Of a stretch of 64,000 bases of DNA, positions 37,486 through 61,163 are shown one piece after another. Below the pieces are notes generated by a model, which was given only the letters and a program-made list of their open reading frames with translations, was not told the origin of the DNA and did no database searches. Within the stretch, counting starts at the first letter, position 1, and each line of letters opens with the position of its first letter. The translations under genes and the position numbers were made by a program. The DNA is from a virus, in IMG/VR virus record IMGVR_UViG_3300046170_000502, positions 1 to 64,000 of that record. The stretch is one strand, 5' to 3'.

Positions 37486-37571
37486 TTGACTTTTAATCAA
37501 ATATAGAGTATAATACTCGTATAACAATTGAGAAATAAACTCAATCAAATAAAATAAATTGATCTTTAACA
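37486..37571 (+). promoter_or_regulatory. Sigma70 promoter plus boxA-like antitermination site
   Basis: TTGACT 37486, TATAAT 37509-37514; TGATCTTTAACA 37560-37571 (1 mismatch to E. coli rrn boxA TGCTCTTTAACA). Confidence 0.7.
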
Positions 37572-37584
37572 TTTTAAAAACTTT

Positions 37585-37794
37585 GGAGAGGTAGATATAC
37601 TTCTCCTGTGGGTGACCGAATAAGCCTGTCGTGAGCGGGCTAAAGTATGCAGATCCCTGTGGTAGGGTTGGTAGAGTTCAATCGAATGAGCCAAATGACA
37701 ATACCATGTCTAGTCTGTAGTTTGAAGTAGGTACACAATGAACTGATGTTCACGCCGAAAAATTGGAGGTATACAGTAGTCCTTCCCCACGCCA
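37585..37794 (+). ncRNA. Candidate structured non-coding RNA (~210 nt) ending in GCCA
   Basis: GC-richer, no sense ORF, at least 5 hairpins incl. a GUGA tetraloop, GTGGG/CCCAC closing helix, own promoter, boxA and terminator. Confidence 0.6.
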
Positions 37795-37816
37795 TTTTCT
37801 TAATCATGCATTCTAG

Positions 37817-37851
37817 CCTACTCAAGGTTTATTCCTTGGGTAGGTTTTTTT
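37817..37851 (+). terminator. Rho-independent terminator
   Basis: CCTACTCAAGG-TTTATT-CCTTGGGTAGG followed by T7. Confidence 0.85.
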
Positions 37852-37888
37852 GTTTGACAATGATTCGAAATCTGTCATACTAGTATAC

Positions 37889-38143
37889 ATGAATACATTA
37901 AAAAACATTCTTGCGAACTACGGATATATAACCAAACCACAACTCGCCGAACTCAACGAACACTTTCCACACATGAAAGTAGTAATCAAGTGGGGAGGCA
38001 TGCCCCGTGATCGAGTTCCTGTTCGCCAAGCAGTGAAACTCATTAAAAATATTGAATCAAAAAACATCGACTATTGCAGAGAAGTATTCTTCGCATCAGA
38101 TGAAATGAGTAAGCTTAGAGAAGTATTTCACATTGCACAATAA
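37889..38143 (+). CDS. Hypothetical protein
   Basis: Leaderless promoter at 37854. Confidence 0.55.
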   Translation: MNTLKNILANYGYITKPQLAELNEHFPHMKVVIKWGGMPRDRVPVRQAVKLIKNIESKNIDYCREVFFASDEMSKLREVFHIAQ

Positions 38144-38161
38144 CCATAAACAAAAAAACAT

Positions 38162-38737
38162 ATGATTAATCCAGCAGAAGTAACAAACTATAATAGAACA
38201 CAATACGAATTAGAAGAATTTATCTTGTTCTGTATTAATGTAGCAGGAAAGAAAAGTTCAATTGAAGCACCTAAATTAGAAGTGTTTATTGAAAGAGCAA
38301 AAGATATAACAAAAGAAACAAGTCCATTTAATTGTATAAGAAAATTGATTAAATTGGGCCGGCTCCAAGAGATCATGCATTGGGCAAAGCTTAGTCCATA
38401 TCAGCAAAGATACAACTCTTATGTTGCTGTATCAAAGATTCAAGACCTCCAAACCGTTACCCTGAACAGGTTATTGCAGGTTGCAGGCATCGGGCTCAAA
38501 ACAGCAAGATTCTTTCTTTCTCATAGCCGCGAAGACTTTGACGAACCAATGCTCGACACACATATCTTAAGGTTCCTTCGCGACCAAGGATACAGTGACG
38601 CCCCAAAGAGCACTCCTTCGAATGTCGGTATCTACAACTATTACGCTAATGTATTCAAAATGTTTGCAAGGACCTTAGGAAAGTCAGTTACTGATCTTGA
38701 TCTTGAAATTTGGAAAAAGTACTCGGGTACTGCTTAA
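38162..38737 (+). CDS. HhH-GPD DNA glycosylase (OGG/N-glycosylase-DNA lyase-like)
   Basis: LLQVAGIGLKTARFFL (HhH with Lys) ..LDTHILRFLR; C-term DLDLEIW. Confidence 0.75.
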   Translation: MINPAEVTNYNRTQYELEEFILFCINVAGKKSSIEAPKLEVFIERAKDITKETSPFNCIRKLIKLGRLQEIMHWAKLSPYQQRYNSYVAVSKIQDLQTVTLNRLLQVAGIGLKTARFFLSHSREDFDEPMLDTHILRFLRDQGYSDAPKSTPSNVGIYNYYANVFKMFARTLGKSVTDLDLEIWKKYSGTA

Positions 38738-38966
38738 TGGATACTGCTACAATTATTATTGTTGCATTCATCATAGGCCTTGTCCGCGCCGTTCTAGAAA
38801 CAAAAAACGAGGATTTTTAGAAGCCAAATATTCTTCAGCCAAATAACACAACCAAATACCAATTATATATATTACAAATAAGGGGGAAACAAATAACAAT
38901 CCAAATAAATAAAGGAAGTAAAATGTAGATAAAATTAGAAAAAAAAGAATAAAATTAAAAATTACA

Positions 38967-39047
38967 TAAGTCGTTGTATATCAACAAGTTGCGGAAAATC
39001 CGCCTAGGCTTTTTTACGTAAGTCTTTGAAGCTCAACAACTTACAAC
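38967..39047 (+). repeat. Palindromic cassette repeat R1
   Basis: TAAGTCGTTG-N-CAACAAGTTG..CGCCTAGG..CGTAAGTCTTTG-N-CAACAACTTACAAC; promoter at 39074. Confidence 0.85.
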
Positions 39048-39108
39048 TATATTCAATTAAATGAAAAAAAAGGTTGACTTGCGGTAAAAACCTGTCATAC
39101 TTGTATAC

Positions 39109-39507
39109 ATGATTAAGACAAAGCCTAACGAAAAAAGATATAAGATTGACTTTGGCAGTCCTGTTTTTGTTTACAAAAATCTTCACAAAAAATGTTGGAG
39201 CATCAAGCAAAACGGATTGGTCAAGGCTCATACTAAATTATTAGCAATGCATAGTTGCACCTTCAAGGTTAATAAAAATGGGCGACAAAGAGTTTTAAAA
39301 GAACAGCGTAAAAATGTTCATGCAGGAATCGAGGGCTATATAGAGAATTGGCAAATGGGTGATTGGAGAGAATCTCATCCCACCGCACGACCTGTTTCAT
39401 ACAACCCATATAAGTATGAGAATTTTGTTGACAAGGACACGGAACAAATGGTAGACTATGCTATTGCCGTAAGATTAGAACCCAAACAAGTATTAGCAGT
39501 ATTATGA
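39109..39507 (+). CDS. Conserved phage protein
   Basis: VFVYKNLHKKCWSIK..GRQRVLKEQRKNVHAGI..V.YNPYK; MIKT start. Confidence 0.7.
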   Translation: MIKTKPNEKRYKIDFGSPVFVYKNLHKKCWSIKQNGLVKAHTKLLAMHSCTFKVNKNGRQRVLKEQRKNVHAGIEGYIENWQMGDWRESHPTARPVSYNPYKYENFVDKDTEQMVDYAIAVRLEPKQVLAVL

Positions 39508-39653
39508 ATGAAACACAAATGACCAAAACAAGTATCCAAAAAGAGATCATTGACCAATTTGACTATTTAAGTCCGAGAGAGTTAATGGTGATTTTCGAGT
39601 TAATCTTCGGAATGGGAGAGGTTCAACTAGATGAAGTAGATTGGAGTAAGTAA
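39504..39653 (+). CDS. Small hypothetical protein
   Basis: ATGA-coupled 49-aa ORF. Confidence 0.4.
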   Translation: MNETQMTKTSIQKEIIDQFDYLSPRELMVIFELIFGMGEVQLDEVDWSK

Positions 39654-39655
39654 TT

Positions 39656-39889
39656 ATGACACAAGCAAAAATTAGAGAAAACATTTTAAGCATCGTTCGA
39701 GGAGAAATGGCATACGCAGATCCAATGTCCAAGGTTTGCTTGGAGCAGAACGAGCGTCACCCCGAAAAGTTTCCACTTGGAAGTACATTTCAATCAGCCG
39801 AAGAAGTTTTAGAAGACATCATTTTAAGTTTGACATCATTGCAAAATGAGCTTAGAATAGAGTCTTCATTTCAATCAGCACAACTATAA
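39656..39889 (+). CDS. Hypothetical protein
   Basis: ORF chain. Confidence 0.5.
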   Translation: MTQAKIRENILSIVRGEMAYADPMSKVCLEQNERHPEKFPLGSTFQSAEEVLEDIILSLTSLQNELRIESSFQSAQL

Positions 39890-39905
39890 ACACAAGGAAA
39901 AAATC

Positions 39906-40313
39906 ATGGGATTAGATCAATACGCATACGCACGACCACCACGCAAACGCAATTCAGACAACGATATTCAAGTTGCCGAGTGGAGAAAACACAATCGCTT
40001 ACAAGGTTGGATGGAACACCTTTGGCAAAGCAAAGGTTGTCCAAACGCAAATGAAGATGGTGATTTTAATTGTGCAGTATTACCACTCACATCTGAAGAT
40101 ATTGATTCTCTTGAAGATGCGATTCTTAACTTTGAGTTACCCCAAACGGACGGATTCTTTTTTGGTTCTGATTCTTATTTTTGGACTGACGAAAATGATG
40201 AACCTCATGCCGATAACGATTATTGGTACAAAGAATCTGACTTGACATTCATCAAAGAAGCAAGAAAAATGATTGAGAAAAAGCACAGAATTTTTTACTC
40301 TTCTTGGTATTAA
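39906..40313 (+). CDS. Conserved phage protein
   Basis: MGLDQY, WRKHN.LQGW, NC..LPLT, LP.TDGFFFGS. Confidence 0.7.
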   Translation: MGLDQYAYARPPRKRNSDNDIQVAEWRKHNRLQGWMEHLWQSKGCPNANEDGDFNCAVLPLTSEDIDSLEDAILNFELPQTDGFFFGSDSYFWTDENDEPHADNDYWYKESDLTFIKEARKMIEKKHRIFYSSWY

Positions 40314-40351
40314 GGCTTGACTTTCGCTGAAAATCTGACAAACTATACATT

Positions 40352-40549
40352 ATGAGCATGACACTAGAAACACCACAACAAATTAACGCATTCCGATTAA
40401 GGACTCTCGCAAGAGGAATAAAATTGGAAATGAATGGATTAAAGATGTCGAGAGGTAGAAGTTGCTACTCGATTGTAAAATCTGAATTCGGATTCAAGGG
40501 CAACAAGCAATCTGTTCTTGACCAATTACTCAACCACATGGAGGGATAA
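40352..40549 (+). CDS. Conserved small phage protein
   Basis: GIKLEMNGLKMSRGRSCY..KSEFG.KGNK..VL.QL. Confidence 0.65.
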   Translation: MSMTLETPQQINAFRLRTLARGIKLEMNGLKMSRGRSCYSIVKSEFGFKGNKQSVLDQLLNHMEG

Positions 40550-40551
40550 GG

Positions 40552-40761
40552 ATGAACGAATATATTGATGCAGTATGCGAGGGACAACCTCTTGACAAAC
40601 CAAGTTTCAACCAAGATTCAGAGCAATGGGAATTGTACTTTGAAGAGTCTGCCACGCCTTGGCATCCTTATGACTCAAGGGATTTAATCGCAGTAAGTTT
40701 TGACTCTGCCCAAGAAGCAGAACAATCTTACAACCACTATTCACAACCTAACCAAGGATAA
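40552..40761 (+). CDS. Small acidic protein
   Basis: ORF chain. Confidence 0.5.
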   Translation: MNEYIDAVCEGQPLDKPSFNQDSEQWELYFEESATPWHPYDSRDLIAVSFDSAQEAEQSYNHYSQPNQG

Positions 40762-40764
40762 GAT

Positions 40765-40929
40765 ATGCGAAATTCTCGAATTGAAAATCTTAGGAATAAA
40801 GTTCGCAATATGGGCTACGCTTTGGCTCAAGCTGAATTGCGAGGCTTGAGGGGAGAAGAATTGTTTGCTAAGAAATTGGCTCACAACCTACTTCTTGGCG
40901 AACTTTACTCTCTCGAAAAAAGGGTATAG
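40765..40929 (+). CDS. Small hypothetical protein
   Basis: 54-aa ORF before hairpin. Confidence 0.45.
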   Translation: MRNSRIENLRNKVRNMGYALAQAELRGLRGEELFAKKLAHNLLLGELYSLEKRV

Positions 40930-40936
40930 TTAAAGG

Positions 40937-40964
40937 GGCGGGCTTGGGAAAACCCAAGCTCGCC
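40937..40964 (+). terminator. Strong GC hairpin (probable terminator) abutting R2
   Basis: GGCGGGCTTGGG-AAAA-CCCAAGCTCGCC; weak U tail. Confidence 0.6.
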
Positions 40965-41045
40965 TTAGCCTTTGTTATTCAACGACTTACGAAAAATCGC
41001 CCTGGCCGGTTTGGCCTAACTCATTGATACTAAGTAACTTACAAC
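40965..41045 (+). repeat. Palindromic cassette repeat R2
   Basis: CAACGACTTACG..TCGCCCTGG..TAACTCATTG..ACTTACAAC; tandem promoters at 41073 and 41177. Confidence 0.85.
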
Positions 41046-41241
41046 AATCTTTATTTTTATGAAAAAAAAGGGTTGACATTACATCATTTTCTGTCATACT
41101 TGTATACATAAGCGAGATAACTGAACTTAAAAAAAATTAGTCGAAACAAAAAAAACTTAATCGAAGAAAAAAAAGCTTGACAAAAACCAAAAACTTTAGT
41201 ATAATTAACCCATCAAAGACGATAAACCAACACTAAAAATT

Positions 41242-41979
41242 ATGAATAAAAAAATTGATCTCTCCGTATGTGGCACAAAAAGAATTGACTTTAGCGAAGT
41301 AAAGTCCGTACAGACTCCCGAAAAGACTGAGTCTTGGCAACCAATCGGTCATGCGTTCCTTGTTGATCGTGTGCAAAACCAAATCCAAGACAATGGTTGG
41401 GAAATTGTTGACACTTACCATTCTCTTCACCGATTCGGTCAGCGTTACTTCGGTCTCTTTCACATCAAAAACACAGGTTCCGATTCTGATGATCGTGGCA
41501 CAATTCTTGGTCTTCGCAACTCGCACGACAAATGCTTTCCAGCAGGTTTGTGCATGGGCAATGCTCCATTTGTTTGCTCCAACCTTATCTTCACTAACGA
41601 AGTGACTCTTGCAAGACGGCACACAAAAAACATTTTGACTGACTTGTCTCAAGTTATCGCTCGCACTCTCGGCAAGATGACTGAGACATGGGCAAGCGAT
41701 GAGAAACGCATCGAAGCATACAAGGAGTATGAACTTGGCAACGAGCAAGCTCATGACCTTGTTATCCGTGCATACCAAAATGGTGCGATCAGCAAGGGTA
41801 AAATCGCTGATGTAGTTGAGCAATGGCACAAACCCGAACATGATGACTTTTCTGCTCGGAATATGCACTCATTGTATAACGGCTTTACTCATGTCCTTAA
41901 AGGTGGAGTTCATGCCTTACCAAATCGTTCTCTCGCATTGCATGGTGTTCTTGACTCCGAAGTCGCACTTGTAAAGTAA
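41242..41979 (+). CDS. DUF932 (TIGR03299-like) phage/plasmid protein
   Basis: RYFG, LGLRNSHDK, FVCSNL, LYNGFT. Confidence 0.75.
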   Translation: MNKKIDLSVCGTKRIDFSEVKSVQTPEKTESWQPIGHAFLVDRVQNQIQDNGWEIVDTYHSLHRFGQRYFGLFHIKNTGSDSDDRGTILGLRNSHDKCFPAGLCMGNAPFVCSNLIFTNEVTLARRHTKNILTDLSQVIARTLGKMTETWASDEKRIEAYKEYELGNEQAHDLVIRAYQNGAISKGKIADVVEQWHKPEHDDFSARNMHSLYNGFTHVLKGGVHALPNRSLALHGVLDSEVALVK

Positions 41980-42027
41980 TCATTCTTAATCAAAAACCAA
42001 AACACAAACCTAACAAAAATTAAAATT

Positions 42028-42258
42028 ATGAAAAATCAAGCAAAACTCAAAAATGTAGTTGATAGTCTCAAAGGTCGTTTCGTTTCTCTTCTTGTCAAGC
42101 AAGGTGAGCAACGCAAGGTCTTCTCTGCTAAAGTCAATAGCGTGACTTCTCGTCATGTTATGTTTTCGGACATGAATGGAGCAAATCGTCGAGTTAATCG
42201 TCGCCATGTTCTTCGTGCGACTTGTGCTAACAAATCTTTTAAGAGGTCAGTTGGTTAA
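42028..42258 (+). CDS. Small basic protein
   Basis: ORF followed by terminator. Confidence 0.55.
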   Translation: MKNQAKLKNVVDSLKGRFVSLLVKQGEQRKVFSAKVNSVTSRHVMFSDMNGANRRVNRRHVLRATCANKSFKRSVG

Positions 42259-42284
42259 TCGCAAGCTCGGAAACGAGTAGGCTC

Positions 42285-42310
42285 AAGCCTCCCTTCGGGG
42301 AGGCTTTTTT
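42285..42310 (+). terminator. Rho-independent terminator (UUCG loop)
   Basis: AAGCCTCCC-TTCG-GGGAGGCTT + T run. Confidence 0.9.
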
Positions 42311-42331
42311 GCATCTTGAATTATTGTTTCG

Positions 42332-42415
42332 TAAGTCGTTGCAGGCCAGGCAGTTACGAAAAACGGGCCTAGGCTTTTTGGCGTAAGTTGTTGGATATCA
42401 ATGATATCCGCAACA
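42332..42415 (+). repeat. Palindromic cassette repeat R3
   Basis: TAAGTCGTTG..CAGTTACG..GGCCTAGGC..CGTAAGTTGTTG..CAACAAAA; promoter at 42447. Confidence 0.85.
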
Positions 42416-42481
42416 AAACTTTTTTTACTTTTTTTGCATTTAGGGGTTGACTTTGCACCTTATTCTGTCATAATGGAATAC

Positions 42482-43225
42482 ATGATTAAGACAACACTTC
42501 TCACATCAGGTAATCAAAAAATTCTCAAAGGCGAGAAATTAGGTTACATAACGAAAGGCATTCACTTTGCCCCAGCAAGTCTTTCAGGCTTCGAAGTTTG
42601 CCGTTGGCGTTCTAAAGGTTGCACGGCATCTTGCCTCAATACGGCAGGTCGTGGACAAATGAATTCAATTCAAGAATCTCGTGTCGCCAAGACAAAGTTG
42701 TTCTTCAATCATCAGTTAGACTTTCTTGCGAAGCTATCGAAAGAAATTTCTAATTCAATTAAGAGTGCAACGAAGAAAGGAATGAAATCGGTTTTCCGAC
42801 TTAATCTCACAAGTGATGTAATGTGGGAATCTGTTTTCTTTAACGAAGATCAGCCAAAGTCAATCTTTGATAAATTTTCGGATGTTCAGTTTTATGATTA
42901 TACGAAATCATTTAAAAGAATGTGTTCTTTTCTCGACAAGCCTTTTATTAAGGGCGAGGCAAAGTTTCCCTCTAATTACCACTTGACTTTTAGTCGCTCG
43001 GAAACAAACGATACAAAATGCGAGATGGTTCTTTCAATGGGTGGCAATGTTGCCGTTGTATTTCGCAATCAATTACCTAAAACATGGAAAGGTTTTGAGG
43101 TTGTCAATGGTGATGATAATGACCTTCGCTTTCTTGATAAGAAAGGTGTTGTTGTTGGGCTTATCGAAAAAGGCATGGCAAAGAAGGATTCAACGGGATT
43201 TGTTCAAGAAGGGGTAAATTCATGA
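42482..43225 (+). CDS. gp88-like phage protein
   Basis: C..GCTASCLNTAGRG, FRLN.TSD, FYDYTK, NYHLTFSRSE, GGNVAVVF, GD..DLRFLD..GVVVGL..KG; MIKT start. Confidence 0.75.
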   Translation: MIKTTLLTSGNQKILKGEKLGYITKGIHFAPASLSGFEVCRWRSKGCTASCLNTAGRGQMNSIQESRVAKTKLFFNHQLDFLAKLSKEISNSIKSATKKGMKSVFRLNLTSDVMWESVFFNEDQPKSIFDKFSDVQFYDYTKSFKRMCSFLDKPFIKGEAKFPSNYHLTFSRSETNDTKCEMVLSMGGNVAVVFRNQLPKTWKGFEVVNGDDNDLRFLDKKGVVVGLIEKGMAKKDSTGFVQEGVNS

Positions 43226-43389
43226 GTGAAACATATTACGATTCAGCCGAAGATTTAATGATTAGTCAATCAAGAGCGTTTGATGAACTATCAAAGCATG
43301 GTTGCCAAGAGATACAGCAATTTCTTGAGGACATGGGAGATAAGGAGGAGTATGAAGCACAAAAAGTATTGGAATGGTTAGGTTACTAA
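43222..43389 (+). CDS. Conserved small phage protein
   Basis: YYDSAEDL.IS..RA..EL..HG..F..D.G..Y.AQ.VL.WLGY. Confidence 0.6.
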   Translation: MSETYYDSAEDLMISQSRAFDELSKHGCQEIQQFLEDMGDKEEYEAQKVLEWLGY

Positions 43390-43467
43390 ACGCTTGGTTA
43401 TGAACTAGTTAGGGCAAAAAGCCCTGGGCGATTTCGCGCAAGTCTTTGGCGATCAAGGCTTTACAAC
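43387..43467 (+). repeat. Palindromic cassette repeat R4
   Basis: TAAACGCTTG..GTTAGGGC..GCCCTGGGCG..CAAGTCTTTG..CAAGGCTTTACAAC; promoter at 43495. Confidence 0.75.
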
Positions 43468-43532
43468 TATTTTCATTTTTTCTGCATTTAAGGGTTGACT
43501 TAGTTTGAGATTCTGACATACTAATACTTACC

Positions 43533-43632
43533 AACACGATCAAACTAATCTGCAAATTAGTGGTGATTAAGAGAGGTGCGGATTGCAGTCCTAATTATAC
43601 TCTTGTGGGTTCGACTCCCTCCGTGTTTGGTA
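43533..43632 (+). ncRNA. tRNA-like / degenerate tRNA element
   Basis: AACACG/CGTGTT closing stem, T-arm GGG-TTCGACT-CCC, two TGCA-loop hairpins; no canonical D arm or CCA. Confidence 0.35.
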
Positions 43633-43694
43633 TCATTTTATTATTCACTAAAAAAACGCTTGACTTCACAAAAAATTCTGTCATACTATTAATT

Positions 43695-43820
43695 ATGAAA
43701 GCGAAAAAAATTAAGATAAGACAATCCATTCTCTTTACAAAAGCTCGCCCTTTCAAGATGAAAAACAAAATTCTTGATCGGAAACTAAAACACAAAACCA
43801 AATTGACTTATGTATCTTAA
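43695..43820 (+). CDS. Small very basic protein
   Basis: TTGACT(43660)-CATACT-N7-ATG. Confidence 0.45.
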   Translation: MKAKKIKIRQSILFTKARPFKMKNKILDRKLKHKTKLTYVS

Positions 43821-44052
43821 CGACCCAAACCACTTGCAAGTCCAAGATGTTGACTCGCTCGAAGCAAACGAATTAGTTATGGCATTCATCCATGACAATA
43901 TGATCGAGCCGATGACCGACAAGAATATGCTTGACAATGATCAACTTTCAATGTTAAATGTAGTTGGTAGTGCGTTAAAGTGCATTGCTCAAAAAGCTCA
44001 CGCTTACGAAACTCTCACAGAATCGCAAGACTCATCTCATTACAGAAACTAA
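43810..44052 (+). CDS. Hypothetical protein
   Basis: ORF chain. Confidence 0.5.
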   Translation: MYLNDPNHLQVQDVDSLEANELVMAFIHDNMIEPMTDKNMLDNDQLSMLNVVGSALKCIAQKAHAYETLTESQDSSHYRN

Positions 44053-44253
44053 ATGAACAAAGAAAAACATTTAATTACGAAAAGCAAAGACGGATGCGTT
44101 GTCCTTATTAAAGCAGAGAAGAAGACTGAACAGACCGATGTCTTTATCTCGCAAGCAACATTCGAGAAGAACATCTCAAGTAAAACATTCGTAAAACACG
44201 CAACACTCACACACAACAACAATCCAATATATATCTACCATGAAGACCTTTGA
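44053..44253 (+). CDS. Hypothetical protein
   Basis: ORF chain. Confidence 0.5.
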   Translation: MNKEKHLITKSKDGCVVLIKAEKKTEQTDVFISQATFEKNISSKTFVKHATLTHNNNPIYIYHEDL

Positions 44254-44572
44254 TGACTTAAATTTTAACTCTCACCCAAGTGCAAAAGATTTGGGAGTCC
44301 AAGCAAGTATAACTTTCGATAATGGTTACGCTATTAGCGTTGTATCCAATGTGGATGGAGGTCAATGCTTCTATGGCAATCACCCCAACACTTACGAAGT
44401 CGCAGTATTCAATCAGCGTGGAGATTTTGTTCCATTGCAACCTTTTGACGATGTTCTTGGTTGGCAGGATAGAATGCAAGTTTCCAAGCTAATGAGTCAA
44501 TTTCAACAAGACGGAGTTAAACACGAAAAGCTTTTGCATTCAATCAAACAAGATAAACAAAACAATGACTAG
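44240..44572 (+). CDS. Conserved phage protein
   Basis: MKTFDDL.F..H, FDNGY.ISVV, YG..TYEVAV, V.GW. Confidence 0.65.
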   Translation: MKTFDDLNFNSHPSAKDLGVQASITFDNGYAISVVSNVDGGQCFYGNHPNTYEVAVFNQRGDFVPLQPFDDVLGWQDRMQVSKLMSQFQQDGVKHEKLLHSIKQDKQNND

Positions 44573-44726
44573 TTATCAAATACTTAAAAACGGAGAGCCT
44601 GCCGGAATTGTTGGCACGCTCGATTATATTGTCAACGCCATTCGTAATCTCGAATCAGATCTTGATCGAGTAACTGAACATTCACCTTATACAATTGAAT
44701 TGGTCAAACGAACGGCAAAAATGTAA
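44565..44726 (+). CDS. Small hypothetical protein (last rightward early gene)
   Basis: 53-aa coupled ORF. Confidence 0.45.
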   Translation: MTSYQILKNGEPAGIVGTLDYIVNAIRNLESDLDRVTEHSPYTIELVKRTAKM

Positions 44727-44808
44727 ATATCAAATACAATTCTGTGGGCAGCAAATACTAAATACTCAAATACCAAATATTTAAATAACAAATACAAATA
44801 CATAAATA
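44725..44808. repeat. AAATA(C) micro-repeat cluster at the convergence point
   Basis: About 10 AAATA units in 85 bp. Confidence 0.6.
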
Positions 44809-44829
44809 AGGATTTGAGCTAAGAAATCC

Positions 44830-44906
44830 GAATGTGTTGAGTACCAACGACTTGCGAAAAAAAACCTAGGGCGGTTTTCCCTAGGTCATTGATAGTCAGC
44901 GACTTA
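44830..44906 (-). repeat. Palindromic cassette repeat R5
   Basis: CAACGACTTGCG..CCTAGGGCGG..CCCTAGGTCATTG..CAGCGACTTA; same orientation as R6, no promoter. Confidence 0.8.
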
Positions 44907-44908
44907 TG

Positions 44909-45100
44909 TTAAAAGTCGTATTGATCGTGGTAGCCCCAGTCTACATCTTCATTTTCAGAGAATTCTTCTAGAGCCTTGCGGTCTGACTCTTCCAGTTCTT
45001 CCCTGGCAAGCTGGTCAAGCAGTGCTTGACGCTCATCGAGATCGACATCGGTAATGCCGTGGGCGTGAGAGAGGCGGGTGAGTGAGTCATTGTTTTCCAT
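44909..45100 (-). CDS. Small very acidic protein
   Basis: Sole gene between R5 and R6; promoter at ~45135. Confidence 0.55.
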   Translation of the reverse strand: MENNDSLTRLSHAHGITDVDLDERQALLDQLAREELEESDRKALEEFSENEDVDWGYHDQYDF

Positions 45101-45151
45101 AATTCTAATCTAGCAAAATCGCAGATCTTTGTCAAACTTTTTTTTCATTTT

Positions 45152-45233
45152 GCTGTAAGTTGTTTACAACCAACGAGTTACGAAAAAACGACTTGGGCGG
45201 TTTTCCCTAAGTCATTGACTTGCAACAACTTAG
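45152..45233 (-). repeat. Palindromic cassette repeat R6
   Basis: Reverse complement aligns with R1. Confidence 0.85.
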
Positions 45234-45350
45234 GAAAAACTAAACTTTTCTCTTGCCTCACAAAGAGATTGTGCAATTAAAAAGCACAATCAGTTAAGCC
45301 CCTGAAGATTCCAATTAACGATGCGATTATCATAATTGTGACCAAATCCA

Positions 45351-45524
45351 CTAGGACATTGACCTTTCTAACTCTTGGATTTTGTTATCAATGTCGATTT
45401 GCACGGCTTGAATTTGGCTCGCTTCTTCTTGCTTGCCAAGTCTCAAGGCATTGACTCTTTGAATTGTCAACGCTTGAAGCGTGCTGATTAATGTATCAAT
45501 TTTTTCTGTTATTGCTTTGTTCAT
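45351..45524 (-). CDS. Small coiled-coil protein
   Basis: Start MNKAITEK after the -10 box. Confidence 0.5.
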   Translation of the reverse strand: MNKAITEKIDTLISTLQALTIQRVNALRLGKQEEASQIQAVQIDIDNKIQELERSMS

Positions 45525-45561
45525 GCTATTATTATACCATATTGAGGGCGACTTGTCGAGA

Positions 45562-45849
45562 TCAATCTTCAAAGATTGCTCGCATGGATGGGCTGACTGA
45601 CTCCATATCGTGGAGGTTCTCGTCATTGTCGAAGTCGTCATCCTCTTCGGCTTTATCTTCGGATGAAGCCAATTCGGAAACCTCGTCCTCAACATCTCTT
45701 TGAGTTGCTTCGAGCAAACCATGCTCAACGACCAATTCCTCAGCCATAATTTCGGCTTTCATGTCTTGAATGAAGTTAGACACACTTTTAGAAACAGGTG
45801 CATCTTTTGCGTTTTCGATTGCTTGGCGAATGAGATCAATGTTATTCAT
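45562..45849 (-). CDS. Very acidic small protein
   Basis: About 28 D/E in 95 aa; promoter at ~45885. Confidence 0.55.
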   Translation of the reverse strand: MNNIDLIRQAIENAKDAPVSKSVSNFIQDMKAEIMAEELVVEHGLLEATQRDVEDEVSELASSEDKAEEDDDFDNDENLHDMESVSPSMRAIFED

Positions 45850-45888
45850 ATTTTAGTATTATGGATTAATTATGTGAGTTTGTCAAAC

Positions 45889-46092
45889 TTATTTTGTAAA
45901 TTCTTTGAATATTTTTCTAAGCTCTTGAACCTTTTCAAGAAGTCCTTTGGTGGTCATTTCTTCGGTCAAGGTTCTGTCGGAATCCTTTTTTTCTGTTTGC
46001 ATATAATGAAGAAAGTCAATCGCTCCCTCCATTTGTGCAAGCTTAGTTCCGAAGTCGATTTCTTTTATTATTGTTTCTTTTGTCTTAATCAT
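45889..46092 (-). CDS. Small helical protein, paralog family A
   Basis: MIKT start; LAQMEGAI.FL..RTLTEE. Confidence 0.55.
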   Translation of the reverse strand: MIKTKETIIKEIDFGTKLAQMEGAIDFLHYMQTEKKDSDRTLTEEMTTKGLLEKVQELRKIFKEFTK

Positions 46093-46217
46093 ATACCTAC
46101 AAGGTAACACATAAAAAGGAGTTTGTCAAATTTTTTCTCACTTACCTTTCAACTATGTTTTTGCACAATTCGACTGCTATTTTCTTGCAAAGTTGGCACG
46201 GAATCTGTATCGATTTT

Positions 46218-46299
46218 GTTGTAAGTCGTTGCCGCTCAACGAGTTACGGAAAACTCCGGAGGGCGGTTTGCCCTAAGTCGTTGGTTACTAACACTTTAC
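46218..46299 (-). repeat. Palindromic cassette repeat R7
   Basis: GTTGTAAGTCGTTG..CAACGAGTTACG..GGGCGG..CCCTAAGTCGTTG. Confidence 0.85.
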
Positions 46300-46300
46300 G

Positions 46301-46495
46301 CTAGTCAACCAAGATTAACGGGTCAGGCAGTGGAGTGCTAGCAATGTACGCCTCTAACTCGCTAACCTCTGCTTGTGCGATTCTGTCGAGATCTGCTTGA
46401 GCCGCTATTATGCACATTCTAGCTGATGAAGAACCATTTTCTGCGGCTTCGAGATTTTCGTCAATTATTTTTTGTAGTCTTTGTTTTTCTGTCAT
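46301..46495 (-). CDS. Hypothetical protein
   Basis: MTEK start behind a leaderless promoter. Confidence 0.5.
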   Translation of the reverse strand: MTEKQRLQKIIDENLEAAENGSSSARMCIIAAQADLDRIAQAEVSELEAYIASTPLPDPLILVD

Positions 46496-46543
46496 AAGTA
46501 TAATCTAATCTATTTTTTTGTTTCTGTCAAGCGTGAATGTGAA

Positions 46544-47089
46544 TTATTTTAAGAAATGATTGAATGCACTTTCAAGTTTACCTTTGTTGAGATTTTCTTT
46601 TCTGTCGCGAGGTACGAAATTTGACCAATGATTTCCTCCACCACTTTGTCGCTCTTGTATGTGATCAATGTTCCAAGCGTTGTCTACATTTTTATTTGTC
46701 CAATTAGACCAAGACTTGCCGTTTTCAAGTTGGACATCTAGGAATATTCTAAACTGATCCAATGAGCATCCTAAAGTTTTTTTATTTCCTCCGAGCATAC
46801 CAACTTTATCGGAGAATAATTTTCTTTCTTGTGATTCTGTCAACATTTTCACTTTTGGATCGTGGGCGATTTTGTTTCTTATTCTTTTGTATTTTTCTTT
46901 GATGTTTGCAATTTCTTTCTTTTTTACTTCGATCATCTTTTGCAATTTTTCGATTCCCTCAAGCTCTGATTGGATTTGTGCTTGCTCTGAGATTTTAAGC
47001 ATATCTCCGAGATCGAGATCTGTTCTGTTACTCTTTACAGAGTTTCTTCCGTGATGTTTATTCCAAGCGTCAGATATTTTAATTTTCAT
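46544..47089 (-). CDS. HNH endonuclease-like protein (same family as 14543..15163)
   Basis: LGCS..F..L..Q..G.SW.N..WNIDHI..NHWSNFVP..EN..K. Confidence 0.7.
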   Translation of the reverse strand: MKIKISDAWNKHHGRNSVKSNRTDLDLGDMLKISEQAQIQSELEGIEKLQKMIEVKKKEIANIKEKYKRIRNKIAHDPKVKMLTESQERKLFSDKVGMLGGNKKTLGCSLDQFRIFLDVQLENGKSWSNWTNKNVDNAWNIDHIQERQSGGGNHWSNFVPRDRKENLNKGKLESAFNHFLK

Positions 47090-47368
47090 ATTTTTTATTT
47101 TTAGCAATTAACTTTATAGTATTTTATATTATAGTAATTTTATTTTGTGTCAAGCTTTTCTTTACTTACATCTGAAAAAAGATCGATTTTCTTTTCTGTC
47201 ATAGATTTATACATAAAGAAGAAAGCAGGAATAAAAGTTAAAAGAAGCAAGATGTCGTAATTCATAATTTATTTTTGTTATATTAATTTAATGTTATATA
47301 TACAATGTATCAGAAAATGAAGTAAAGTCAAGCGTTTTTTAAAAAAAAGATTAATTATTTTTACTTTT

Positions 47369-47450
47369 GTTGTAAGTCGCTGGCCATCAAGGAGTTGCGA
47401 AAAATCGCCTAGGAATTTTTTCCCTAAATCGTTGGCATTCAGCGACTTAG
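47369..47450 (-). repeat. Palindromic cassette repeat R8
   Basis: GTTGTAAGTCGCTG..CAAGGAGTTGCG..CGCCTAGG..CCCTAAATCGTTG..CAGCGACTTAG. Confidence 0.85.
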
Positions 47451-47468
47451 GAAAAACTGGAGTTTTGT

Positions 47469-47624
47469 TTACTTACTCGAGAGAATAGGAGACTTGTACT
47501 TTACGCTTAAACGATTGGCTATTTCAATAGCTTGTGCGTAAGTTCTTGCTCCGTCAATTAGCTCGCCATTAAAGACGACATTAAACCAATTTGAGAAATT
47601 CGGGTTTCTGAATACATTTATCAT
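47469..47624 (-). CDS. Small hypothetical protein
   Basis: Start MINVFRNP behind promoter. Confidence 0.5.
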   Translation of the reverse strand: MINVFRNPNFSNWFNVVFNGELIDGARTYAQAIEIANRLSVKYKSPILSSK

Positions 47625-47671
47625 TTTATTATTAAAGCAAATTTTTGTTATTGTGTCAAACTTATTTGAGA

Positions 47672-47944
47672 TTATTTTTCCCAAATTTGTTGAATGTAGT
47701 ATTGAGCATTGTCGCCATCTTTGCGTTGAATGCTTGTTTGGAATTGCAACTTTGGTTGAAGCGTCCGAATCATGCGAGCAACTTTTCGCCTTACTTCGTG
47801 CTTGTCTTCAGCTTGTATAGTAATTGTGTGATGTGTCTTGTCGATGTCAATGTACGACTTAGTGTTACTATTCCATAAGGAAATTGCTTCACCATCGAGG
47901 GAAGAGACATGAACGCTTGCAATGAATGTTTTATTCTTAATCAT
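47672..47944 (-). CDS. Hypothetical protein
   Basis: MIKN start behind a leaderless promoter. Confidence 0.55.
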   Translation of the reverse strand: MIKNKTFIASVHVSSLDGEAISLWNSNTKSYIDIDKTHHTITIQAEDKHEVRRKVARMIRTLQPKLQFQTSIQRKDGDNAQYYIQQIWEK

Positions 47945-48004
47945 ATATATAATCTAATCTAGTTTTGGTTGGAAGTCAAGTTTTATTTTACTTATTTTTA
48001 CTTA

Positions 48005-48202
48005 TTATTGAAAGACAACATTAAAACGAAACTGATTTAAACCTTCGTCTTTCATGATCTTATTAAGATGAGATTGACTTGATGCAGTCCGAACCCTTGG
48101 GCGATCATTGCCGTTTGAGTCGATGCCTTGATCGAAAATCTTTACTGACCAATGGGTTGACCATTCTTTAATGCGAACTTGTATTTTATTATTCTTAATC
48201 AT
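48005..48202 (-). CDS. Hypothetical protein
   Basis: MIKN start behind a leaderless promoter. Confidence 0.55.
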   Translation of the reverse strand: MIKNNKIQVRIKEWSTHWSVKIFDQGIDSNGNDRPRVRTASSQSHLNKIMKDEGLNQFRFNVVFQ

Positions 48203-48240
48203 ATGTATAATCTAATGGAATTATTTGCAAAAGTCAAACT

Positions 48241-48468
48241 TTATTTTTCATTATTTAGATCACGCATTGCTTGCAATGCTTTTCTTGCTATTTGAACAGC
48301 GTGTAATGCGTCCATGATTGTTTCAGCTTGCGTGAATGTACCTTGCCAATTGTCAGAATTTGATTCACGAACCAAGTGATTCAAGTTGCCTTCGGCTTTA
48401 GCTAAGCCCATTCCAAGGTCGATTTTTAAGTTTAATTCTTTTTTTATTTCTTCTTTTGTCTTAATCAT
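48241..48468 (-). CDS. Small helical protein, paralog family A
   Basis: MIKT start; LAKAEGNL.HL..TFTQAE..DAL.A.Q. Confidence 0.55.
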   Translation of the reverse strand: MIKTKEEIKKELNLKIDLGMGLAKAEGNLNHLVRESNSDNWQGTFTQAETIMDALHAVQIARKALQAMRDLNNEK

Positions 48469-48540
48469 ATATACAATGTATCAGACAAAACGGCAAAAGT
48501 CAAGTATTATTTTGATTTATTTTAACTTTTTTTTCATTTT

Positions 48541-48622
48541 GTTGTAAGCTGTTGGTATTCAACGAGTTACGCGAAAACGGCTAGGGCGATTTGCCCTAAG
48601 TCGTTGATCTTGTGCTACTTAG
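48541..48622 (-). repeat. Palindromic cassette repeat R9
   Basis: GTTGTAAGCTGTTG..CAACGAGTTACG..CTAGGGCG..CCCTAAGTCGTTG..CTACTTAG. Confidence 0.85.
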
Positions 48623-48927
48623 AACACAAGAGGATCGGGTAATGAATTAGGCGATGCGAACCAATCGGATGAGTCAATTACTTGCCCGTTTAGTATAGGC
48701 TCGAATTTGAATTGGCAAACATCTGCATTCGCTATGCCGTTGACGCGTTCGCGTGTGGTGGGTGTGTTCCATCCTGCAAGCGACCATCTGACCAAGCCGT
48801 CAGCGTCACGCTTGACAATCGCGTTGCCATGTAACCAAACGGTGTTGCCGTCTGTGGTGGTGTTGCCAACTGTCTTGGCTTCGCCGCGTTCAAATGCTTG
48901 TTTAATTTGTTGTGTTACTTTTCGCAT
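48619..48927 (-). CDS. Conserved phage protein
   Basis: MRK.T, V.LHGNAI, S.AGW.T.TT.ER.N. Confidence 0.65.
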   Translation of the reverse strand: MRKVTQQIKQAFERGEAKTVGNTTTDGNTVWLHGNAIVKRDADGLVRWSLAGWNTPTTRERVNGIANADVCQFKFEPILNGQVIDSSDWFASPNSLPDPLVF

Positions 48928-48985
48928 GATTCTTTTATTGCTGTTATGATTCCTATTATGAATGATATTATTATAATGTCAAGCA

Positions 48986-49207
48986 TTATTTCAAGCCGTC
49001 TCTTAATTCGCTTAACTCTTTTGTTACCTTGCTGAATTCTTTATGAGCTTGTTGCAATGCGTTTAATGCGTCGGCAACGGCTTCACCTTGCGTAAGGGTT
49101 GCCATGTCAGATTCAGCAAGAAACTTTAGGTTGCCTTTAGCTTTGGACATTGCAAGCGAGCATTCGAGAGTCGGATATCTTTTTATTTTTTTATTTGTTT
49201 CTGTCAT
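48986..49207 (-). CDS. Small helical protein, paralog family A
   Basis: MSKAKGNL.FL..TLTQGE..DAL.A.Q. Confidence 0.55.
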   Translation of the reverse strand: MTETNKKIKRYPTLECSLAMSKAKGNLKFLAESDMATLTQGEAVADALNALQQAHKEFSKVTKELSELRDGLK

Positions 49208-49505
49208 AGTATAGAGAGTAAAGAGTTTTTATTGATGCGTCAAGCTTTAAGCGAATAAAGGATGAATTCTAATGTTGCGAGGATGCCAAGCCATTGTTTT
49301 CTGTGATCTATACAGACGACAAAGCACTTGTTTACCTAGGCGATCATCTGTAAACTCTTTGATCACTTGGTAAGTATTATTATCTCTTGCGAGTACGACA
49401 TCATTTTTTTTATACATATTTTATATTGGTTATTTAATTAATCTTATATATACAATCTAACACATTCTGACCAAAAGTCAAGCCCATAGCAAAAAAACTT
49501 TGTGT

Positions 49506-49533
49506 CGTAAACTATTGATTATTATATACTTAT
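49506..49533 (-). repeat. Partial cassette repeat R10
   Basis: Single degenerate arm pair CGTAAACTATTG..ATACTTATG next to promoter at ~49480. Confidence 0.4.
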
Positions 49534-49585
49534 GAAAACATAGAAAAAAAAGTTAAAAAAAGTTTTAATTATTAGTTATTCTGTA

Positions 49586-49611
49586 CCCCCTACCCCCTTA
49601 TGACCCTACCC
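49586..49611 (-). other. G-quadruplex-type motif at the early/late divergence
   Basis: Minus strand GGG-TA-GGG-TCATAA-GGGGG-TA-GGGGG. Confidence 0.6.
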
Positions 49612-49773
49612 ATTAAATGAATTCATTTTTCGATCGCATTGTGCAATAGCCGCCGGGGGTGCCTTTTTTCAATATGAAATGCAACCTAATAAATTATAAT
49701 ATATTGCTCAAGCCAAAAAAAATCCAGCCACTATATAAAAACAACTTAAATAAGTGTATAATATATTAGTAAA

Positions 49774-59534: not shown

Positions 59535-61163
59535 ATGGAAATGGATATACCATATAAATACAAGACTACTTTTGATAATATCATTGTCGCATCTAGTGAT
59601 TTTGAAAATTTAAATATCAGCAAGGCTTCACTCGAGCCCCTTAGACCTTTAATCCCGGAAGATATTAATCTTGACAGAAATATCGATCTACTCGGAATTG
59701 CATTTAATGCCGCCGTTGTGAATAAATTCAATAAAAACGGAGATGGCATTGATAGCGAAACTGCGGTAGCTGTAAAAGATTACTTTATTCACAAGCCAAC
59801 TAATATCGAGCATAATCGAGATAAAATTGTTGGACATATCGTTTCTGCGGGATTTTCAAAATATGGAGATTCCTCAGATTTATTATCGAATGAAGAGGCT
59901 CTTTTGGAGGAAAATGCATATAATATAGCTTTAGCAGCAGTAATTTACAAAACCGCCAGTAAGGAATTTGCAGATTTAGCGATCAATTCGACAGATGAAT
60001 CTAGTGATTACTATAATACAGTTTCTGCAAGTTGGGAAGTTGGTTTTAATGATTATGTAATCGCCGTTGGTGGCGACGATCTGTATAAATCTTCAATCGT
60101 CTCAGACCCTCAAGAAATAGAAGCTTATTCTCCATATTTAAAATCTCTTGGAGGCAAAGGTTGCTTGAGTGACGGCAGAAAAGTTAATAGGCTTATTGTC
60201 GGCGATATATACCCCCTAGGAATTGGGTTCACTTCAAATCCAGCTGCAGATGTGCAAGGTATTATAGCGGAAGATCAACAGAATTCGACCCCATCGCGAA
60301 GCCCGCGAGAATCTATCGAGAAGATTATCGTAAAAAGTAAAAAAATTTCCCATTCATCCAAAGAGGATGTATTAAACAAAGAACCTAATAATAATTTAAT
60401 TATGGATAAAGATCAACTCATTAACGAATTCCGAGCAGCTTTAGATGAAAAGCTTGGCAAGCAAGATTTTTCTGAAGAAAGCGTCGCTAGCATCTCCAAG
60501 GTGTTTATCGAGGCTATCAGAGAAAAAGGCGAACAGTATGTTGCCGACCTTGAAAAAGCTAAAGCTGAAAAAGAAGAAGCTGTTCAGGCTCAAAGCTCTT
60601 TACAAGACAAAGTAAATCAAGTAGAAGAGCAACTCTTATCAACCAAACAAAAACTTGAAGCCCTTGAGCAAGAGAACACCGCTCGTGAAGCTGAAGTTCG
60701 TTTCAATGCACGCATGGAAATGCTCAATGAGATTTATCAATTAGATGAAGATGATTCTAAAATCGTCGCCTCAGAGCTTTCCTCGCTTGATGCAACCGAA
60801 GAAGGTTTCTCAGAGTATCAAGAAAAACTTTCAAAAGTTTGGAAGCATAAAAACAAAGAATTTATCGCAGCTGAACAAAAAGCGTTTGAAGATCGCGTAA
60901 CTCAAGAAGTTGAAAAACGTCTCGAGACCGTTCAAGCTACAGAAGAGACTTTAGAAGAAGATTCTCAGGAAGATTCGGTTGAAGTCTCTGAAGCCTCACA
61001 AACTGAAAATGAAGAATCTTCGGACGAAGTTGAAGAAACTCTCGACAATCTTCAAGTTGAAGAAGCGGCAATCGTTAACAATAACGAAAGCTCTTCCGAA
61101 GGAGAATCTCTTCGTGATCGATTCGCGAAGACCTTCAAAGAATCAGTTAAAATTTCATACTAA
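59535..61163 (+). CDS. Prohead protease/scaffold fusion
   Basis: NKNGDG, HKPTNIEH..IVGH, SASWEV in the N-term; long acidic coiled-coil C-term; position before capsid genes. Confidence 0.7.
   Translation: MEMDIPYKYKTTFDNIIVASSDFENLNISKASLEPLRPLIPEDINLDRNIDLLGIAFNAAVVNKFNKNGDGIDSETAVAVKDYFIHKPTNIEHNRDKIVGHIVSAGFSKYGDSSDLLSNEEALLEENAYNIALAAVIYKTASKEFADLAINSTDESSDYYNTVSASWEVGFNDYVIAVGGDDLYKSSIVSDPQEIEAYSPYLKSLGGKGCLSDGRKVNRLIVGDIYPLGIGFTSNPAADVQGIIAEDQQNSTPSRSPRESIEKIIVKSKKISHSSKEDVLNKEPNNNLIMDKDQLINEFRAALDEKLGKQDFSEESVASISKVFIEAIREKGEQYVADLEKAKAEKEEAVQAQSSLQDKVNQVEEQLLSTKQKLEALEQENTAREAEVRFNARMEMLNEIYQLDEDDSKIVASELSSLDATEEGFSEYQEKLSKVWKHKNKEFIAAEQKAFEDRVTQEVEKRLETVQATEETLEEDSQEDSVEVSEASQTENEESSDEVEETLDNLQVEEAAIVNNNESSSEGESLRDRFAKTFKESVKISY

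Follow-up and report, generated by a model that had tools for sequence, protein, structure and literature searches.

What makes unrelated genes of one phage begin with the same letters? The question is raised by the window analyzed here, 64,000 nucleotides corresponding to positions 1 to 64,000 of IMG/VR record IMGVR_UViG_3300046170_000502, which come from an uncultured marine phage of ~190 kb. In its cassette region, eight open reading frames (ORFs) open with MIKT, MIKN, or MTE and also share DNA immediately upstream. An earlier, sequence-only reading proposed that new ORFs are acquired there by recombination just inside the coding sequence, gaining a ready-made promoter and start, with selection for leaderless initiation as the alternative. 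Our analysis favors a combination. These are probably regulatory cassettes that resemble the promoter-early stem-loop (PeSL) cassettes of T4-type phages, in which a leaderless, A-rich constraint acts on the 5' ends and the start words have been spread by recombination.

All eight ATGs lie where the sequence-only reading had placed them, and the upstream strings it quoted are correct. The starts at 39109(+), 42482(+), 46092(-), and 48468(-) read ATGATTAAGACA, those at 47944(-) and 48202(-) read ATGATTAAGAAT, and those at 46495(-) and 49207(-) read ATGACAGAAA. Six of the eight share ATGATTAAGA, followed by CA (four) or AT (two), and the start word ATGACAGAA(A) opens the other two. The mechanical ORF list extends two of the genes farther upstream, to 42401 and 46110, but sequence is conserved in relatives only from the ATGs named above onward, and these are the predicted true starts. 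The claim that the rest of these proteins is unrelated holds between the six protein families to which the eight genes belong, since profile–profile comparison with hhalign gave probabilities below 1% once the first 8 residues were removed. It does not hold for 46092, 48468, and 49207, which are paralogs in one family (fam9). As for the upstream letters, CTGTCATACTTGTATAC and CTGTCATAATGGAATAC correspond to an extended -10 box (CTGTCATAMT) plus discriminator, and TAGATTATA.. to a -10 box (TAGATT) plus discriminator, the latter being (G/A)TATAY. Since they match these elements, the "shared upstream DNA" is promoter consensus.

Each of the eight ATGs is found 6 to 8 nt after a -10 hexamer, with TTGAC a further 16 to 18 nt upstream. 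The arrangement TTGAC-N15-19-TAnnnT-N4-9-ATG occurs 21 times in the window versus 2.1 expected. Of the eight sites, an independent promoter scan listed six, and several of these have a TG-extended -10 box; the weaker -10 boxes of 46092 and 49207 fell below its threshold. Since the ATGs follow a sigma70-type -10 box this closely, the mRNAs are predicted to be leaderless, with transcription likely to start on the A of ATG. When 146 starts from 57 families were aligned in their commonest register, the conserved upstream positions were an A-tract, C-TTGAC-(A/T), T at -17, and the T, A, and T of the -10 box, with a pyrimidine at -1 in 94% and A at +4 in 84% of the starts. Past +4, an A-rich, G-poor stretch decays gradually to about +20, and codon 4 marks no sharp end of homology when the family is taken as a whole. 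We dropped 5'-NAD capping as a cause of the -1 pyrimidine; leaderless mRNA with an NAD cap has been found to be translated normally (PMC11514452).

We then relied on relatives from IMG/VR, where hundreds of marine contigs carry a relative of the GP88-like gene at 42482. The same-clade set comprises 28 of these, with GP88-like proteins 69 to 100% identical, and the complete clade genomes G002 and G003 measure 194 and 203 kb. One relative, L024 (IMGVR_UViG_3300032073_000045), is a mosaic near-twin of the window, whose locus consists of blocks of 97 to 100% identity broken by at least four extra cassettes (fam10, fam13, one ORF before fam16, and one ORF before fam9) and by rearranged minus-strand cassettes. 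Sister clades are represented by related marine phages (L026 to L036) with GP88 53 to 59% identical. In marine RNA-seq runs, relatives of the window are present as contigs only. The 28 related loci and the window together yielded 340 starts that abut a promoter, 307 of them unique, which BLAST grouped into 88 families; the scans required an ATG, so start-codon use is set by design. A Shine–Dalgarno (SD)-like motif accompanies 15 of the 307 leaderless starts (5%) versus 100 of 268 internal genes (37%).

MIK opens 78 of the 307 unique leaderless genes, in 20 of the 88 families, versus 5 of the 268 internal genes lying downstream in the same operons, and three of those five have a -10 box 6 to 7 nt upstream. 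At the family level, the comparison is 14/88 promoter-abutting to 3/95 internal (Fisher p=0.004). The simplest account would be chance combined with generic A-rich 5' codon bias, such as the A-rich preference directly after the start codon reportedly seen in Escherichia coli (+2 codon effects of the Looman/Stenstrom type). Indeed, A at +4, A-rich, G-poor codons 2 to 7, and the A-rich gradient are found in leaderless and internal genes alike. However, with position-specific base frequencies from 38 other leaderless starts, which allow for this bias, a 7-mer after ATG common to at least 6 of 13 cassette starts has p <= 3e-8. Generic bias predicts ATTAAGA at 1e-4 to 2e-3, versus 6/13 seen, and it leaves unexplained both the at least 10-fold enrichment over internal genes and the restriction to promoter-abutting starts of one clade. 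The possibility, allowed for by the sequence-only reading, that the identity merely reflects A-rich bias can be set aside as practically negligible.

Codon choice is skewed as well. At codon 2, Ile is encoded by ATT (89), ATA (21), or ATC (6), even though 38% of the Ile codons in gene bodies are ATC; Thr in the start region is ACA in 39 cases versus ACT in 6; and Lys after Ile is AAG in 70% versus 42% in gene bodies. For ATGATTAAGACA, one synonymous counterpart is ATGATCAAAACC. Since synonymous usage is skewed at codons 2 to 4, the bias acts at the nucleotide level. A further possibility considered was that (T/C)ATGAT at -1 to +5, which resembles a -10 box, could be a sigma-dependent pause element.

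These results bring up pure convergent selection, in which ATGATTAAR and ATGACAGAA are optimal leaderless 5' ends that arose independently in each gene, with no role for recombination. The skewed codon choice and the confinement of the words to promoter-abutting starts fit this well, as do the occurrence of the words behind several promoter types and their retention by orthologs whose promoters have changed. Nevertheless, 0/36 of the other leaderless genes of the window and G002 start with MIK, nor do any of 39 starts in the sister clades, which have the same TTGAC-17-TAnnnT-6-ATG leaderless design. Sister-clade genes prefer MKT, MTT, and MTK (one of their words being ATGAAAACA), and in both G002 and G003, a promoter followed by ATGATHAAR is limited to one ~6-kb region. 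The general bias (ATGA, A-rich), common to the clade and its sister clades, is probably functional. The particular start word is lineage-specific. Identity runs of 14 to 33 nt (39109/46092 and 46092/48468), for which position-specific frequencies give about 1e-4 per pair, and the departure of 48468 from its orthologs only in a patch shared with a paralog also speak against independent origins, and we regard convergence by itself as rather unlikely.

Within the clade, the starts are largely kept. GP88 orthologs open with M(I/L)K(T/Q) in 28/28 cases, 26 of them with MIKT, using ATT/ATC, AAA/AAG, and ACA/ACG variants; gp82-like orthologs show MIK in 17/21 and MI in 21/21; and fam6 orthologs show MIKN in 12/13. 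Farther away, distant GP88 relatives open with M(K/S/T)LL.. or MTKLL, and a 39%-identical gp82 homolog, which has an SD sequence, begins at the equivalent of residue 16. Since one distant GP88 relative begins MIKLL, an ancestral M-x-K for GP88 is conceivable. The idea that homologs elsewhere lack MIKT/MIKN is therefore borne out by distant GP88 and gp82 homologs but not by clade orthologs of three of the six families, which keep the start. In these three families, grafting was not recent.

The positions at which identity between orthologs breaks down point to joints around the start codon. Among GP88 orthologs, the first 75 coding nt are 90 to 95% identical and the 60 nt upstream are unalignable, with the break at -1 and seven promoter versions visible. 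Sharp breaks at ATG are also seen in fam4, fam6, and fam23, and breaks at +12 to +15 in fam3 (at +15 between L022 and L024), fam8, and fam16; fam8 sequences are 98% identical from +15 on and before that read ATGATATTAACAGAA versus ATGACATTATACACA. Identity collapses at -5 to +4 in 25 of 54 ortholog pairs, 3 of the 19 distinct cases being 1-nt indel artifacts. Gene 43222-43389 (+) offers an example of a changed start. In the window, it is translationally coupled to GP88 (ATGA overlap, GAAGGGG before) and starts MSET. Its L024 ortholog (L024:6750-7118) lies behind an additional, inserted ORF, is preceded by a leaderless promoter of its own, and starts MTDT, with identity to the window gene resuming at codon 5; the L029 ortholog also has its own leaderless promoter and starts MNDT.

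In the comparison with L024, cassettes of promoter plus ORF are found inserted as wholes, between a palindromic element and the -35 box that comes next, and promoters bound the insertions and deletions of cassettes. The 46092 gene and its copy in L024 are 97% identical, but the promoter core (-38 to -1) has been exchanged, the one in L024 resembling that of 46495 in the window; the joint 46095->46501, as at the 46092 promoter of L024, was also seen in a marine run contig, as was a promoter-to-promoter deletion, 47966->48495. Inside the window, near-identical start blocks have staggered ends, ranging from -17 to +2 for 39109/41108 and 48468/47295 (19/19 positions, divergent beyond), through -17 to +13 for 39109/42482, -14 to +14 for 47944/48202 (27/28 positions), and -8 to +14 for 39109/48468, to -3 to +33 for 46092/48468. 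Orthologs of 48468 with bodies 72 to 75% identical start MINLN, MTNTIE, or MTMTQTKE, and 48468 departs from them exactly in the 18 nt it has in common with 46092, a start that by all appearances shows a patch exchange with this paralog. Among near-identical gp82-like genes, promoter type and codons 2 and 3 occur in all four combinations (a four-gamete pattern). General hypervariability of codons 2 to 5 was rejected, with 0.02 to 0.07 differences per site versus 0.03 to 0.06 in the gene bodies of close orthologs; exchange is thus a better explanation of the sharp local differences than hypermutation.

Alternatively, the words could be functionless leftovers of promoter duplications that ended by chance inside coding sequence. 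Leftovers of this kind would have staggered ends and be clade-specific, as observed, and copies of the same promoter family that lack an ATG exist. Neutral leftovers, however, are expected to decay like promoter spacers, whereas the words persist through promoter replacement and in orthologs that are 15 to 30% different elsewhere, and ATC and ACT/ACC are avoided at codon 2. Pure hitch-hiking is in our view improbable.

The promoter family is not confined to leaderless genes. Between 37.8 and 49.5 kb it has at least 13 leaderless and 3 ATG-less members, and it also fronts leadered transcripts with a predicted start of ATAA.../ATC... and A-rich leaders of 17 to 40 nt. A few of its non-coding leaders contain ATTAAGA (e.g., ATAATTAAGAAAC). 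This last finding, the nucleotide-level constraint, and the clade and region specificity of the word would all be expected if it were a cis-acting tag, either a DNA operator at +1 to +12 or a tag at the RNA 5' end, recognized by a phage regulator or nuclease specific to the clade and serving to co-regulate accessory early genes. Yet no regulator emerged as a candidate, variation between AAA and AAG and among ATT, ATA, and ATC is tolerated, and the word is present on only about a quarter of cassette starts, which makes such a tag very doubtful. Slightly less remote, although still a long shot, is a version in which ATGATTAAR... is more than a product of cassette shuffling, being a clade-specific 5' tag, recognized as DNA (+1 to +12) or at the start of the RNA, through which a single phage-encoded control governs a set of accessory early genes unrelated to one another; new ORFs would come under it by recombining into the tag, and control could then consist of shut-off, stabilization, or preferential leaderless translation.

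The reading we prefer, PeSL-like cassettes with a constrained 5' end and recombining start words, has its own difficulties. Its transcription starts are predictions, the RNA data being contigs, and convergent selection for a particular word is conceivable. Where close orthologs have homologous promoters, codons 2 to 5 are in general not enriched for changes, BLAST segment ends (a genome-wide proxy for joints) are enriched no more than about 2.7-fold at -60 to +19, and the exchanged patches, at 10 to 30 nt, are short for homologous recombination. In addition, the start words stand behind at least four different -10/discriminator types, and there is therefore no single fixed "promoter-to-codon-4" module.

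In the preferred reading, the eight starts would be the +1 positions of one sigma70-type early promoter family, laid out as an A-tract, CTTGAC(A/T), 17 to 18 nt, TAnnnT, 6 to 7 nt, and a pyrimidine directly before ATG. The first 12 to 15 nt would be initial transcribed sequence, ribosome-binding 5' end, and codons 1 to 5 all at once. Two layers may be superimposed on them, 1) a constraint that applies to all starts of the phage group (A at +4, then a stretch rich in A and poor in G/C that decays to about +20), and 2) the clade-specific start words ATGATTAAR(ACA/AAT) and ATGACAGAA, found almost only at promoter-abutting starts of accessory cassettes. Start words and promoter cores would be short patches traded among cassettes by recombination, a mechanism we infer from joints between the -10 box and roughly codon 5 to 11. 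Once attached, a word would be inherited with its gene, and the general leaderless 5'-end constraint probably keeps it from decaying; the words may bring a functional benefit. The start word itself looks historical, that is, clade-specific and reassorted by short-patch exchange. With no leader in between, a cassette's conserved 3' edge falls in coding sequence, which would give unrelated proteins the same first residues. Both original proposals survive in part. Recombination inside the start of the coding sequence is supported by joints at ATG or +12 to +15, the 46092 promoter swap, and the 48468 patch, but three of the six families carry their start clade-wide. Selection for leaderless initiation agrees with the geometry, the near-absence of SD motifs, and the synonymous skew, but not with the lack of MIK in other leaderless genes and sister clades.

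Table 1. Promoters, leaderless genes, and palindromic elements of the cassette region (window coordinates; promoter architectures and transcript starts are predictions).
Feature	Position	Strand
Promoter TTGACT-16-(TGT)CATACT, discriminator TGTATAC, ends one base before ATG	39074..39108	+
Leaderless gene MIKTKP..., Phage_L5_gp82 family (PF25735), Pfam profile from residue 15	39109..39507	+
Promoter TTGACT-16-(TGT)CATAAT, discriminator GGAATAC	42447..42481	+
Leaderless gene MIKTTLLT..., GP88 family (PF17338), Pfam profile from residue 6	42482..43225	+
Promoter TTGACA-17-TACCTT-8 nt; different core in relative L024	46093..46129	-
Leaderless gene MIKTKE..., 67 aa, paralog family fam9	45889..46092	-
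Promoter TTGACT-17-TACATT-6 nt; -17..+2 identical to ATG-less promoter 47304-47331	48469..48503	-
Leaderless gene MIKTKEE..., 75 aa, fam9 paralog; first 18 nt as in 46092	48241..48468	-
Promoter TTGACT-17-TAGATT-6 nt	47945..47979	-
Leaderless gene MIKNKT..., 90 aa, fam6	47672..47944	-
Promoter TTGACT-17-TAGATT-6 nt	48203..48237	-
Leaderless gene MIKNNK..., 65 aa, fam22, unrelated to fam6	48005..48202	-
Promoter TTGACA-17-TAGATT-6 nt	46496..46530	-
Leaderless gene MTEKQR..., 64 aa, fam7	46301..46495	-
Promoter TTGAC-18-TACTCT-7 nt	49208..49243	-
Leaderless gene MTETNK..., 73 aa, third fam9 paralog	48986..49207	-
Same-family promoter, leaderless ATG at 37889 (MNTL); -21..+4 common with 39109, then divergent	37854..37891	+
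Same promoter, -17..+2 identical to 39109, ATG-less; predicted transcript start ATAAGCG	41073..41110	+
Same-family promoter, ATG-less; predicted transcript start ATAACATT	47295..47331	-
Same-family promoter, ATG-less; predicted transcript start ATAAGATTAATT	49445..49481	-
~75-nt palindromic element preceding promoters, one of at least 7 copies	38962..39036	
Further copies of the palindromic element	40960, 42327, 43382, 45151, 46217, 47368	

In the four plus-strand cases that were checked, 35 to 45 nt separate the palindromic element from the promoter downstream. As RNA, the elements fold only modestly better than shuffled sequences (z -1.4 to -2.5), and a T-tract is missing in most.

Other features of the region were recorded alongside. 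At 41073-41245, two promoters stand in tandem with no intervening ORF. The first has the -10 box and discriminator of the 39109 type, and about 100 nt past it, a perfect-consensus promoter, TTGACA-17-TATAAT (41177-41205), precedes the DUF932 gene at 41242 with a 30-nt A-rich leader that has no SD sequence. Another consensus promoter, TTGACA-17-TAGAAT, lies inside the end of gene 39656-39889 (window 39830-39905). Downstream of it comes a conserved leader of ~38 nt, ATCTTTTCAATCAGCA... in relatives and TTCATTTCAATCAGCACA in the window, whose conservation exceeds that of typical leaders here; this leader precedes a MGLDQY gene in the window and four relatives and other genes in other relatives. 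Across window 37500-49700, strong SD sequences are mostly missing from operon-internal genes, and the leaders of promoter-proximal leadered genes often end with AAAAATT before ATG, which suggests a host that may rely little on SD pairing. On the minus strand, a 187-aa ORF (46544-47139) is cleanly missing from relatives in two marine run contigs, at a joint (46543->47140) with 7 nt in common, which suggests that it may be a mobile free-standing ORF. An HNH-like motif was noted by eye near its C terminus (ORF 46544-47107); sequence searches of Pfam and PDB returned no match.

The genome from which the window comes is large and has a G+C content of about 33%; genes for PhoH, an ATP-dependent DNA ligase, and three tRNAs accompany a T4-type terminase N-domain in the window. 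When the region was searched for near-identical sequence in 50,697 phage records, there were zero matches. The best match of the large terminase, in Clostridium phages, is 24% identical, and for the putative portal, encoded by an unannotated ORF (59535-61163) that adjoins the terminase gene, the same records offer none; the phage thus appears to have no close cultured relative. GP88 homologs, at up to 46% identity, occur in pelagiphages, in Stenotrophomonas and Xanthomonas jumbo phages, and in mycobacteriophages.

The closest known counterpart is the PeSL system of mobile regulatory cassettes described in T4-type phages (Arbiol et al. 2010, PMC2839356; Comeau et al. 2014, PMC4122927), where cassettes end with the start codon and crossovers have been mapped between the -10 box and ATG (PMC2839356). 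PeSL cassettes are further characterized by a stem-loop that adjoins or overlaps the promoter and works as a terminator or attenuator, by an SD sequence ahead of the start codon at the 3' end, and by mini-circles excised during infection. In the window as in PeSL-bearing phages, a hyperplastic region made up of small ORFans contains repeated sigma70-like early promoters beside palindromic elements, the cassette extends at its 3' end to the start codon, and close relatives differ by the gain, loss, and replacement of ORFs, the joints lying between the -10 box and ATG. There are also differences. The window phage is not T4-type, its cassettes have neither SD nor leader, with ATG as the predicted +1, its palindromic element, double and ~75 nt long, has no clear terminator T-tract, and its conserved edge and some joints are inside coding sequence, with the result that unrelated proteins share N-terminal residues. 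Classical leaderless phage mRNA is exemplified by lambda cI transcribed from PRM (10.1101/2023.09.02.556006), and a genome-wide pattern with the -10 box adjacent to the ORF is known in Deinococcus-Thermus (PMC12340547). Both resemble the cassettes in having a -10 hexamer 6 to 8 nt before an ATG start and no SD sequence. In contrast, the cassettes comprise dozens of early genes of one phage, in which a 7- to 11-nt word after ATG recurs in unrelated genes.

If our reading is correct, promoter-mediated modular shuffling of the kind known from T4-type coliphages would also operate in an abundant lineage of uncultured marine phages with leaderless early mRNAs, and it would reach into coding sequence, giving unrelated proteins a common N terminus. 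For annotation, it would offer a rule for true starts in these genomes, a -10 box plus 6 to 8 nt, and the more than 300 leaderless 5' ends would form a natural library for probing what determines efficiency beyond a 5' AUG. In evolutionary terms, such cassettes would provide a one-step route by which new ORFs gain both transcription and translation signals.

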